From: Candidatus Wildermuthbacteria bacterium
Lineage (GTDB): Bacteria > Patescibacteriota > Minisyncoccia > Minisyncoccales > UBA10102
Length of the DNA: 64,000 nt
Assembly (NCBI GenBank): GCA_016186115.1
Contig: JACPMK010000003.1
Coordinates: 154,470 to 218,469 of the forward strand
Reading direction: 5' to 3'
Shown: positions 35,201-37,782 of the stretch, piece by piece
Layout: every line of letters starts with the position of its first letter
Position numbering within the stretch: position 1 is the first letter of the stretch
Translations under genes and position numbers: made by a program
The notes under the pieces: generated by a model
Told to the model about the DNA's origin: nothing
The model's database searches: none
Seen by the model: the letters and a program-made list of their open reading frames with translations, nothing else

Positions 35201-35963
35201 GAGTTCGCTCCCCAGCGGAGTAAGCGAAAGCAATCTTAAACTAGCATACTATTCTTCTGAAAGAGGAGAATATGTTCCCGTGGAAGACGGCTTTACTATC
35301 GACACCACGAATAATGTCATTACTGCCCAGACCGATCACTTCACGACTTTCGGGGTTGTGTACGGTTCATCGGTGAGCGTCGCGAGTACGACGACCTCCG
35401 GAGTCACTTCTCCTGAAGATCTTTCGGGATCGAGTCCTTCAGTATACGCATATAATGCTCCTGTATCAACTTCGACTCCGACCCCGACGCCAACTCCTGC
35501 TGCTCCTTCCGTTCCGACTTCGATTCCCACCTCTCCATCTGTCTCAACTCCGAGCATTTCCAAACCGATCTCTGAAATGACAAGAGAAGAGATCGTTGCC
35601 AAAATTGCAGAATTGCAGGCATTAGTAGCAAAACTCCAACAAGAATTGCAGGCGCTTAAACAAGGTTCAGTGCTTGTAGGTATCCCTGTCGATTTTTCCT
35701 TCAGCAATGACCTGAAATACGGAATGAGGTCAGACGAAGTAAAGTACCTTCAGATTATTTTGAAAGCAGAAGTGGGAGATCCTATCTATCCTGCGAATGT
35801 TCCTGCGGGTGGATGGTTCGGTACGACTACAAAAAATTCCGTAATTGCGTTTCAGGAAAAGTATGCACAAGAGATTCTGGCTCCATGGGGCTTCACCAAA
35901 GGTACTGGGCTGGTAGGTAAGACCACGAGAGCAAAATTGAATACATTGCTGGGAGCACAGTAG
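29292..35963 (+). CDS. Giant (2223 aa) secreted surface protein: signal peptide, SbsA/Big-like Ig domains, CarboxypepD_reg-like beta-sandwich repeats, PT-rich linker, coiled coil, C-terminal PG_binding_1-like domain
   Basis: The signal is ...[10 protein letters not shown]. FSE..N motifs are typical of SbsA_Ig-like domains. There is a recurrent G.V.D....A.V......T.SSGNYT pattern. The C-terminus is [17 protein letters not shown]...[16 protein letters not shown]. Confidence 0.85.
   Translation: [2223 protein letters not shown]
33260..34840 (+). repeat. Protein-level tandem array of about 5-6 CarboxypepD_reg-like units inside the giant gene
   Basis: Repeated SG.V.D......A.V.....G....T.TD.SGN(Y/F)T(L/I)....G.Y.(V/I) units. 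They are diverged at the DNA level. Confidence 0.6.
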
Positions 35964-35998
35964 GAGTTTGTCAGCAGATCCAAAGATTTTAACAACAG

Positions 35999-36035
35999 CA
36001 AAAGTCCTGAGCGAAGTCGAAGGACTTTTGTTTTT
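35999..36035 (+). terminator. Rho-independent terminator of the giant gene
   Basis: caaaagtcct / 12-nt loop / aggacttttg followed by ttttt. Confidence 0.75.
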
Positions 36036-36060
36036 GAAGTAAATTTGATACATTAGGTTT

Positions 36061-37782
36061 ATGCGAAAGCAATTGCTTACATTTTTATTGATTGGCGTGG
36101 GATTCCTGGCTGCGCCTCATATTGTCGATGCAGACATACTAGGGCAGAAGGTTACTTTTTTCATTGATCAGCAGAGCGATGCGGAACAACGAGAGAGGAT
36201 ATCTGCGACCCTTCAGTTTATTGCTGATGATTTGTATTTTTATACCGAAGATAGCTGGTGGAATTCCTTGGATCAAGATCAAAGAAATGGCTATATTGAA
36301 AAATTCCGTACCTTAGGGGTGAATTTCCAAAAAGAAATATACCCAACGCTTACCAATCTCTTTGGAACAGAGAATAGACCGGGTATCGATAAAGATGCTC
36401 TGATTACGATATTGATTCACCCGATGAAATCAAAGCAAGTCGGAGGGTATGTGCGTTCGTTGGATGGGCATTTCAAGCTTGAAGCCCCTACGTCGAACGA
36501 AAGAGAGATGCTCTATCTAAGCCCGGAGAGTGTTGTCTCAACCTTTGCAAAGAGCTTTCTTGCGCATGAATTCACGCATCTCATTTATTTCAATCAGAAT
36601 CCAGCTGCAGAGAGTATCGAGGGCGAAACATGGTTTGCAGAAGGGTTTGCGGAATTAGCGCCAACATTTGTTGGATACGATGCAGAGCGGGGAGAGACCT
36701 ATCTGAAGGTTCGGCAGGCCGACTTTGTTGCCAATAAAACCGATTCTCTTACAGAATGGAGCAAAATAGCAGATTATGGGGTAGTGAATATATTTTTTCA
36801 ATATCTGAAAGAACAGTATGGATCCCAAGTATTACTTGAGGCCTTTCGTTCTTCCCAGCCCGGGATTTTAGCAGTTGAGGAAGCATTGGAAAAGAATGGG
36901 ATCAAAAAGAGTTTCGATCAAATTTTTACCAACTGGACGATCGCATTATTTCTTAATGATTGCTCGTATGGAAAGGAGTATTGTTTTGAAAGAGAAGAAC
37001 TGTCGCAATTGAGAGTGGCTCCTTATACAAGTATTCTTCCCACATTCGGCGACAGTTCCCTTACCATCACCAATCAGACAAAGGACTGGGCCGGAAACTG
37101 GCACAAGGTAACTGGCCGGCAAGGATTTTTGAAAATATCCTTTGAAGGAAATCCTACTGCAAAATTCGTGCTTCCGTATCTTTTACAAAAACAATCGGGC
37201 AGCTATGAGTTGCAGTTTCTGCCATTGAGCCCGGATCAGAAAGGAGAGATTCAGGTGAAGAATTTTGGAAAAGAATATATTGCCTTGATCATCATTCCTA
37301 CGGTTCAGACGAAGCGTTCTGCGTTTACGAATTCCGATCCCGCATACTTTTTCTCATGGACTGCAAGTATTACAGGAAGCGAGAATGCTTCAGGAAGTGC
37401 CAATACCAATGCCGGCCAAAAGATTCAGGAACTTCTCCGGCAGATCGAACTTTTGCAGGCGAAAGTAAGGGAATTACAAGCGCAACTCACGCTTCTTCAG
37501 GGGACCAATCCGTGTAGTCGGTTCGAGAGCGATCTCTTCTTCGGTCTTCAGAATAACTCGCAGGTACGTTGTCTTCAGCAGTTTCTCAAGAGTCAGGGGC
37601 CTGCGATGTATCCCGAGGGTTTGGTAACCGGAAATTTCCTTTTCTTTACGAAGCAGGCGGTAATCAACTTCCAGGAAAAATATGCTTCAGAAATTCTTAC
37701 TCCTTTAGGGTTGAGCAAGGGTACTGGTTTTGTGGGGCAGATGACGAGAAAGAAAATCAACGAAATTCTTGGCTATCATTGA
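36061..37782 (+). CDS. Secreted gluzincin-like metallopeptidase (Peptidase_MA-like HExxH...EGFAE) with C-terminal coiled coil plus PG_binding_1-like anchor
   Basis: Signal peptide, HEFTH at 36565-36579, and WFAEGFAE 18-21 residues later (compare the M1 WLNEGFA motif). The C-terminal module is homologous to that of the giant protein. Confidence 0.65.
   Translation: [573 protein letters not shown]

Follow-up and report, generated by a model that had tools for sequence, protein, structure and literature searches.

A giant surface protein and an M30-like metalloprotease encoded side by side in a Wildermuthbacteria genome end in a common peptidoglycan-binding-type module

A stretch of 64,000 nt from the genome of a Candidatus Wildermuthbacteria bacterium (assembly GCA_016186115.1, contig JACPMK010000003.1, positions 154,470 to 218,469 of the forward strand; hereafter the window) was analyzed for the relationship between two neighbouring genes, one encoding a giant surface protein of 2223 amino acids (aa) and the other a protease of 573 aa with an HExxH motif. 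Both proteins end in the same module, a heptad coiled coil followed by a PG_binding_1-type domain, and a protease and a structural protein are encoded side by side with a common putative wall-anchoring module. By analogy with the SlpA/Cwp84 pair of C. difficile, we consider it rather more probable than the opposite that they constitute a wall-anchored surface protein and its co-anchored protease. The giant is identical to NCBI entry MBI2644508.1, annotated as 'carboxypeptidase regulatory-like domain-containing protein', and the protease to MBI2644509.1, annotated as 'hypothetical protein HYW95_03320'. The open reading frames (ORFs), the coils, the peptidoglycan-binding stretches, the Pro/Thr-rich linker and the motif HEFTH, all previously described in a sequence-only reading of the same DNA, were found where that reading had placed them. 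The features of both genes, in window coordinates, are as follows.

29292..35963, + strand: giant surface protein gene, 2223 aa (ORF, MBI2644508.1)
29292..29414, + strand: predicted signal peptide of the giant, aa 1-41, AEA/A cut (read by eye: basic n-region, hydrophobic core, AxA site)
35466..35567, + strand: Pro/Thr/Ser-rich linker of the giant, aa 2059-2092, preceding its module (sequence)
35583..35666, + strand: heptad coiled coil of the giant, aa 2098-2125 (helix 7-35 of the AlphaFold 2 tail model, predicted local distance difference test (pLDDT) 85-95)
35694..35954, + strand: PG_binding_1-type domain of the giant, aa 2135-2221 (Pfam 18.9 bits, model, Foldseek)
36061..37782, + strand: HExxH protease gene, 573 aa (ORF, MBI2644509.1)
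36061..36132, + strand: predicted signal peptide of the protease, aa 1-24, VDA/D cut (read by eye; helix 2-17 in the model)
36142..36990, + strand: predicted gluzincin catalytic domain, aa ~28-310 (homologue alignment, profile, Foldseek)
36565-36579, + strand: HEFTH, aa 169-173 (invariant catalytic residues)
36640-36642, + strand: predicted third zinc ligand E194 (invariant)
36775-36777, + strand: predicted catalytic Y239 (invariant)
37018..37374, + strand: beta-sandwich of the protease, aa ~320-438, PPC / collagen-binding-domain-like (strands 322-438, pLDDT ~85-96)
37417..37503, + strand: heptad coiled coil of the protease, aa 453-481 (model helix 450-480; I(a)/L(d) core in 83 family members)
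37513..37773, + strand: PG_binding_1-type domain of the protease, aa 485-571 (Pfam 22.9/25.4 bits, pLDDT 86-96)

The two tails were aligned by BLASTP over 124 aa with 42% identity and 62% positives (E=5e-26). When each tail was used in phmmer searches against all six-frame ORFs of the window, the other protein was the sole match (E~1e-19 to 5e-20) and the next one had E>=0.2, with no third copy of the tail among these ORFs. The layout of coil plus PG_binding_1-like domain at both C-termini, as first described, was thereby upheld, and the estimate by eye that the peptidoglycan-binding stretches are two thirds identical agreed with a count by hand of 25 identical positions out of 38 (66%). The similarity might have been confined to generic coil; instead, the globular domain contains the best-conserved block of the module, FQEKYAxEILxPxGLxKGTGxVGxxTRxKxN. 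Taken together, the BLASTP and phmmer scores and the conservation of this globular block rule out chance or low complexity as the source of the likeness. At the DNA level similarity was limited to 81 nt at 72% identity, indicating that the tails are related by an old homology at the protein level and not by recent duplication.

The globular part of the module was confirmed, on the basis of structural models, as a three-helix PG_binding_1 fold. The AlphaFold 2 model of the giant tail (pLDDT 89.9) consists of a long single helix followed by a compact helical domain, and all its Foldseek matches with prob >=0.97 were structures containing PG_binding_1, namely CtpB, the C. difficile peptidoglycan-binding protein 5tv7, SleC, SleB (6tci), 1lbu and phiKZ gp144. 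The N-domain of SleB (6tci) fitted the model with a template-modelling (TM) score of 0.84 and a root-mean-square deviation (rmsd) of 2.4 A, and a profile of the module searched against the PDB found 1lbu, 5tv7, 6tci and 3bkh. On the full-length proteins the Pfam PG_binding_1 model scored 18.9 bits for the giant and 22.9 bits for the protease, against a gathering threshold of 23, and rose to 25.4 bits on the isolated protease tail. PF01471 matched 25/25 aligned relatives at E<=0.01 (best 2e-10), and a precomputed PF01471 hit was present on most database homologues of the module. The peptidoglycan-binding fold originally assigned to the tails is thus well founded, and the module is predicted from its sequence to bind peptidoglycan. 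The solved PG_binding_1 structures (SleB/SleC, CtpB, the Streptomyces Zn DD-peptidase 1LBU and phiKZ gp144) share the three-helix fold with Foldseek prob 1.0 (rmsd 2.0-3.5 A over 81-100 columns of the giant tail, 23-32% identity), and PG_binding_1 domains in general are likewise terminal on secreted proteins. The patescibacterial subtype departs from the classical domains: an additional long segment, KYAxEILxPxGLxKGTG, lies between its last helices, a Cys pair is usually present, and a heptad coil obligatorily precedes the domain. Its carriers include structural giants and a protein endopeptidase in addition to wall hydrolases.

In aligned relatives the module is composed of a capping motif, a heptad stretch of ~25 residues, a short loop that usually contains a Cys, and the globular domain. 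To describe its variation, 111 modules from 80 related loci (numbered with the prefix L) were compared. The core columns of the coil, with 3-4-3-4 spacing, were occupied by I/L/V/M/F in 81-100% of 83 protease modules and in 93-100% of 28 surface-protein modules, the weaker N-terminal column 5 being hydrophobic in 63% and 43%, respectively. Over the 111 modules, position a was mostly Ile and position d mostly Leu. Under the Harbury rule, Ile at a combined with Leu at d favours dimers; by this rule the coil would be dimer-like, and a trimer is not indicated. The PG-binding domain of the protease has a conserved Cys pair (C485 and C504) that probably forms a disulfide. Both Cys are lacking from the module of the giant (35694-35760); half or more of the modules of each kind (protease-type, N-terminal, C-terminal) have them. 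The coil is preceded, at 35565-35600 of the window, by a motif KPISEMTxEE(I/L), probably a helix cap, that is conserved in C-terminal modules (those of L005, L008, L010, L052, L064, L081 and L083) and in a subset of members of the protease family. It is the sole conserved linear motif common to the putative substrates and the proteases; N-terminal modules start instead with TAEELQAQI directly after the signal-peptide cut.

An exhaustive profile search for the module over 1.84 billion representative proteins yielded 26,365 representative clusters at E<=1e-3, 10,966 at <=1e-10 and 690 at <=1e-30. The proteins bearing it ranged from 120 to 2392 aa and carried one to eight copies, N- or C-terminally (residues 21-155 of a 1556-aa protein are an example of an N-terminal module), and named hits were almost all from Patescibacteria (WWE3, Nealsonbacteria, Wildermuthbacteria, Minisyncoccales). 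Any notion that the module is special to the giant and the protease has to be abandoned in view of these numbers: it is a known and extremely common domain family, ubiquitous in Patescibacteria, and a putative general wall anchor of their surface proteins. The proposal that it is a portable cassette fared better, one subtype being found either N-terminally, after the signal peptide, or C-terminally on unrelated large proteins.

Comparison of the modules points to two old subtypes, a protease type and a surface-protein type. Protease modules had a mean identity of 55% among themselves, surface-protein modules, N- or C-terminal, one of 53-61%, and N-terminal and C-terminal surface-protein modules were 54% identical to each other. 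Between a protease module and the module of a neighbouring surface protein, identity was 41-44% in the same genome and 41-42% in different genomes; since these values are equal, the anchors of neighbours appear to be neither homogenised nor co-adapted. This equality and the short DNA match between the tails in the window together rule out recent duplication or gene conversion between them. Where two surface proteins of one genome could be compared (L010, 6444-9851 and 11851-17082; L052; L015; n=3), their modules were 61-93% identical, versus 54% across genomes, which hints at gene conversion or recent anchor shuffling among surface proteins, not with the protease.

The N-terminal 460 residues of the protease have more than 1062 homologues of ~480-610 aa (mostly 560-595), all from Patescibacteria where named, and relatives occur in at least 337 species-representative genomes. 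Residues H169, E170, H173, E194 and Y239 were invariant in 28 diverse homologues, and the catalytic motif of the family reads HEFxHLIxFNQ...(x20)...W(L/F)xE(A/G). The assignment of the HExxH protein to the gluzincins, already made in the sequence-only reading, is supported by this HExxH-x20-E arrangement and the predicted catalytic Tyr, and by lugdulysin, an M30 peptidase of Staphylococcus lugdunensis, as the closest structure. Lugdulysin (7bb8) was the one structure matched by the family profile in the PDB (E=6.8e-13), and its residues E242 and Y315, which are mutated in PDB entry 7bb9, align with E170 and Y239 of the protease. Foldseek also gave 7bb8_A as the top match of the AlphaFold model (E=4.6e-14, prob 1.0, 328 columns, rmsd 3.4 A, TM(target) 0.66, 21% identity). 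This model (pLDDT 85.9) ends in a helix, residues 450-480, followed by the PG-binding domain, and its beta-sandwich matched the collagen-binding domain of ColG, the pre-peptidase C-terminal (PPC) domain 5sv5 and the C-terminal domain of CPE (prob 1.0, TM(target) 0.5-0.65).

Peptidase_M30 was absent from the Pfam families listed for the 28 members; Peptidase_MA_2 was matched below threshold in 11/28 and DUF2268 in 7/28, and the NCBIfam model MXAN_6640_HExxH scored 39 bits on the protease, against a cut-off of 140. Because the curated family models were not reached, the protein is regarded as a distant relative of M30 and not as a curated member. As judged from alignments and models, it is a distant, unannotated, putatively wall-anchored M30-like endopeptidase with an intact predicted active site, conserved in Paceibacteria. 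In common with lugdulysin and hyicolysin (MEROPS M30), the HExxH motif, the downstream Glu ligand in a WLNEA-like motif and the catalytic Tyr can be aligned; unlike these M30 members, the protease adds a PPC-like sandwich, a coil and a peptidoglycan anchor, and its family is restricted to Patescibacteria. Hyicolysin ShpII matures a secreted pro-lipase, that is, it acts as a processing protease. A search of one literature collection for 7BB8/lugdulysin found nothing mechanistic, and on the maturation of the lipase the collection offered just a mention of an extracellular protease, given no name.

In the giant, Pfam recognized three Big_5 immunoglobulin (Ig)-like stretches and five CarboxypepD_reg (transthyretin-like) stretches. 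The protein is acidic (isoelectric point 4.7), is composed of T+S+G+A+V to 52% and contains 0.7% Cys. Being predicted to be secreted, acidic, Cys-poor, beta-rich and equipped with a terminal anchor, it has the profile of an S-layer protein. Sequence comparison of the giant with solved structures gave no match at E<=0.01, and BLAST of the giant against itself detected no internal repeats at E<=1e-3. Full-length homologues were found in L005 (60% identity) and L083 (58%), with conserved gene order, and more distant ones of 2728-2873 aa in L037 and L081. Within its gene, G+C content reaches 0.49 at 30001-34000, compared with 0.42-0.43 on either side, and GC skew drops to ~0; the raised G+C could reflect a protein rich in G, A, T and S or a separate gene history.

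Linkage between protease genes and genes for module-bearing proteins was assessed in 57 species-level loci with enough upstream sequence. A module-bearing ORF lay on the same strand within 1.5 kb upstream of the protease in 22 of them, with three more cut by contig ends, and in four loci such an ORF was directly downstream. The density of module-bearing ORFs was 2.31 per 10 kb in the 1.5-kb upstream zone versus 0.07-0.13 further out, corresponding to a roughly 20-30-fold enrichment of anchored surface-protein genes directly upstream of the protease. The pairing of a large surface protein with a gluzincin, deduced at first from the window, therefore recurs far above background in 22 species loci; as a general rule it does not stand, being absent from 33 of the 57. 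Glycan genes were near the protease in 51/63 loci, and murB within 3 kb downstream in 29/60. Proteases with no more than 43-51% identity stand in the same order, giant-protease-murB, in L005, L083 and L037.

The upstream neighbours belong to two families, both acidic and rich in T, S, A, G and V. In family A (1076-1463 aa) the module comes straight after the signal peptide, and in family B, which includes the giant of the window, it is C-terminal; in L010, one protein of each family flanks the protease. Proposed patescibacterial S-layer proteins come in two sizes, 1131-1274 aa, with six Ig-like domains, and ~650-730 aa, with three; in Paceibacteria enrichments, two such candidates rank in the top five of secreted proteins by expression (bioRxiv 10.1101/2024.05.28.596244). 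These top-expressed proteins are reported to carry peptidoglycan-binding domains (PGBDs), and in one published gene table the top-expressed 692-aa candidate PMX_810_sub_00350 is followed by DUF5667, an extracytoplasmic function (ECF) sigma factor and a DeoR regulator (PMC10936435). The order DeoR-ECF sigma-DUF5667-family A-protease in L001 (4240-11758) mirrors PMX_810_sub_00353..00350 of Ca. Yanofskyibacterium. The pair of ECF sigma factor and anti-sigma-like DUF5667 may control the gene of the S-layer candidate. Family A resembles the published candidates (Nealsonbacteria A0A1G2EN61 and relatives, and the PGBD proteins of Kuroda et al.) in size (1076-1463 aa, or ~650-730 for short forms), PGBD, Ig-like repeats and synteny, from which we infer that it corresponds to them.

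The giant shares with family A anchors of one subtype, 54% identical; it differs from the S-layer candidates in belonging to another family, B, in its C-terminal anchor and in being about twice as large. Its membership of family A was rejected, the family A profile having picked out 20 ORFs of related loci but no ORF of the window. Since the giant has no homology to family A, and Wildermuthbacteria have family A proteins elsewhere (P0425, P0440), it is probably not the main lattice protein. A wall-anchored adhesin or an S-layer-associated protein of family B is the more likely identity, to judge from its sequence.

Possible transcription signals around the two genes were examined, and three are given here.

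29181..29208, + strand: promoter-like site 5' of the giant gene (consensus scan, 9/12 with TG; pattern match only)
35993..36036, + strand: hairpin plus U-run between the giant and protease genes, terminator- or attenuator-like
37836..37869, + strand: terminator-like hairpin 3' of the protease gene (13-bp stem, 7 GC pairs, T-run; pattern match only)

The intergenic hairpin folds as RNA with -17.5 kcal/mol (z = -3.7), and none of 200 shuffled sequences was equally stable. By separating the genes it weakens the case for a simple giant-protease bicistronic operon. Protease expression may be uncoupled from that of the giant by the hairpin, or attenuated relative to it; the hairpin may also simply set an expression ratio, high for the structural protein and low for the enzyme. 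Rfam and tRNA scans detected no relevant RNA element near the two genes. Downstream, at 37779-37869, a perfect sigma-70 consensus promoter (12/12) overlaps the stop codon of the protease and is followed by the hairpin with the 13-bp stem and then by the murB start (TTG, 37929). This odd order of promoter, terminator and gene 5' of murB possibly represents a leader, an attenuator or a short transcript.

In the reading that we favour, the giant and the protease would both be exported by the Sec pathway and held non-covalently on the cell's own peptidoglycan by the three-helix PG_binding_1 domain, while the parallel coil of ~25 residues would oligomerise the chains and raise the avidity of these domains. 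The Pro/Thr-rich linker would let the beta-sandwich array of the giant project outward from the wall. Co-anchoring in one wall layer would put the protease beside abundant surface proteins, and it would mature, trim or turn over proteins of families A and B, as Cwp84 does for SlpA and Sap for RsaA. Processing of the giant itself is plausible, by analogy and with comparative support from gene linkage.

Two known systems offer comparisons. SlpA and Cwp84 of C. difficile are, as here, a surface protein and a protease with a common anchor, and Cwp84 combines a catalytic domain, a lectin-like beta domain and an anchor, a layout comparable to that of the protease (PMC5842191). They differ in that their CWB2 anchor binds the PSII polymer, in that the enzyme is a papain-like cysteine protease, and in that cleavage, putative here, has been demonstrated for SlpA. 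Neither CWB2 nor a papain-like family was among the Pfam hits listed for the giant and the protease, which makes the pair an analogue of SlpA/Cwp84 and not a member of that system. In Caulobacter crescentus, Sap carries a copy of the anchoring region of RsaA (PMC3034196); unlike the proteins studied here, RsaA and Sap are Gram-negative, anchored to lipopolysaccharide and type I secreted, and Sap has a serralysin-type (M10) catalytic domain.

Several observations weigh against the protease being a processing enzyme of the giant. An adjacent anchored protein is missing in 33/57 protease loci, and the core role of the protease may be independent of the giant, because linkage to glycan genes and murB is more constant. 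The module of the protease does not co-vary with that of its neighbour, the giant shows no homology to family A, the proposed S-layer family, and the two genes are possibly not co-transcribed, given the hairpin at 35993..36036. No recognisable processing site or conserved cleavage motif was identified in the giant. Peptidoglycan binding by this divergent subtype is itself a prediction, and the Pfam and NCBIfam protease models stayed below threshold on the protease.

With these points in mind, the most serious alternative is that the protease is an all-purpose digestive or attack enzyme tethered to the cell surface, which would break down proteins of a host or of the environment and so feed an auxotrophic episymbiont, its clustering with envelope genes being incidental and the giant not its substrate. 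Conservation of the protease family with or without an adjacent large anchored protein fits this explanation, as do its closest solved relative, lugdulysin, which is a secreted staphylococcal M30 peptidase, a PPC/collagen-binding-like domain typical of secreted degradative proteases, and the expressed secreted peptidase-like proteins that Kuroda et al. find in parasitic Paceibacteria (PMC10936435). Loose clustering, however, would hardly produce a 20-30-fold same-strand upstream enrichment across proteases that are only 41-51% identical, and the constant location next to glycan genes and murB suggests that the protease serves the envelope of its own cell; we regard a digestive role as unlikely, though it deserves more weight than the two explanations that follow. 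The same association with murB and glycan genes could be taken to mean that the protease works on the cell wall itself, for instance by trimming stem peptides of peptidoglycan or wall-linked glycopolymers, all the more as PG_binding_1 is classically found on wall hydrolases (1lbu, SleB, SleC, endolysins). Such an activity is quite improbable for a protein endopeptidase fold of the M30/MA clan, which is not the LAS, M15 or M23 fold of known peptidoglycan peptidases, and for an anchor that is also borne by the non-enzymatic giant and S-layer-like proteins.

Highly expressed PGBD proteins have also been suggested to act in host attachment (PMC10936435), and the module might accordingly bind the envelope of a host, making both proteins attachment or attack factors, a role for which the adhesin-like Ig and transthyretin repeats of the giant would be suited. 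It is hard to reconcile with the presence of the module on the proposed S-layer protein, for which attachment to its own cell is a necessity, and with the location of family B modules at what would be the wall-proximal end, after a long Pro/Thr-rich or low-complexity linker, as expected of anchors. Moreover, the hosts in the study of Kuroda et al. are reportedly methanogenic archaea without murein, and we give this explanation very little credence. A wall-anchored surface protein with a co-anchored protease remains our preferred interpretation.

The genes around the pair were also surveyed. Upstream, positions 1-29156 form one continuous surface-glycan cluster of ~29 kb on the + strand, closed by the following gene.

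28245..29156, + strand: 303-aa coiled-coil protein, probably a Wzz-like chain-length determinant (weak NCBIfam hits)

A homologue of this protein in L002, also with a weak Wzz match, is encoded directly before the protease gene. The cluster includes NeuB (2589-3665), two PIG-L deacetylases, two Wzx-like flippases, Capsule_synth, a UDP-GlcNAc 2-epimerase, several glycosyltransferase genes of the GT4/GT1 families, a polysaccharide deacetylase, three methyltransferases, an initiating Bac_transf, WbqC, DegT and an ATP-grasp protein. A 445-aa ORF in its middle (15459-16796) had no Pfam hit and is by position a candidate Wzy-type polymerase. The products of the cluster could serve to glycosylate the giant or to build a polymer of the wall. 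It also encodes a polysaccharide pyruvyl transferase (CsaB-like, 13318-14280). In Firmicutes, SLH anchors bind to pyruvylated wall polymers; no SLH domain was found in the window proteins scanned against Pfam, a scan that left out a few ORFs beyond 55.8 kb.

Downstream of the protease lie murB, the gene for S-adenosylmethionine decarboxylase, secA and secDF. The slpA locus of C. difficile contains secA2, an LmbE/PIG-L deacetylase and glycosyltransferases and has an adjacent glycan locus, a context comparable to that of the window (PMC5842191), with the difference that secA here is probably the housekeeping copy. Beyond secDF come genes for a Sigma70_r4 plus HARE-HTH protein (46542-47588), a 440-aa protein without Pfam hit (47588-48910) and, at 49008-50633, a TrwB/TraG-like coupling ATPase that has a treble-clef zinc finger; these three genes could be what is left of a system for conjugation or DNA uptake.

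A large part of bacterial diversity belongs to the Patescibacteria, whose envelope biology is known almost entirely by inference. Only in 2024 were S-layer candidates put forward for them and, to our knowledge, nothing is known of how these are anchored or matured. The locus offers a concrete candidate anchor, consisting of a coil and a divergent PG-binding domain and found on thousands of proteins, and a conserved metalloprotease family that databases list as 'hypothetical' or 'peptidoglycan-binding domain-containing' and whose candidate substrates are nominated by recurrent gene linkage. Should the link be only positional, the annotation of an M30-like wall-anchored peptidase and of the family B giants would still be useful. 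A broader view, which we put forward tentatively and as doubtful in its entirety, is that the module is a phylum-wide surface-display system, that the M30-like enzyme is its maturation or editing protease, and that the order glycan cluster - anchored S-layer/giant adhesin - anchored protease - murB - secA marks an S-layer biogenesis locus. If true, the island would be functionally equivalent to the slpA locus of C. difficile, though assembled from unrelated parts in ultra-small bacteria.

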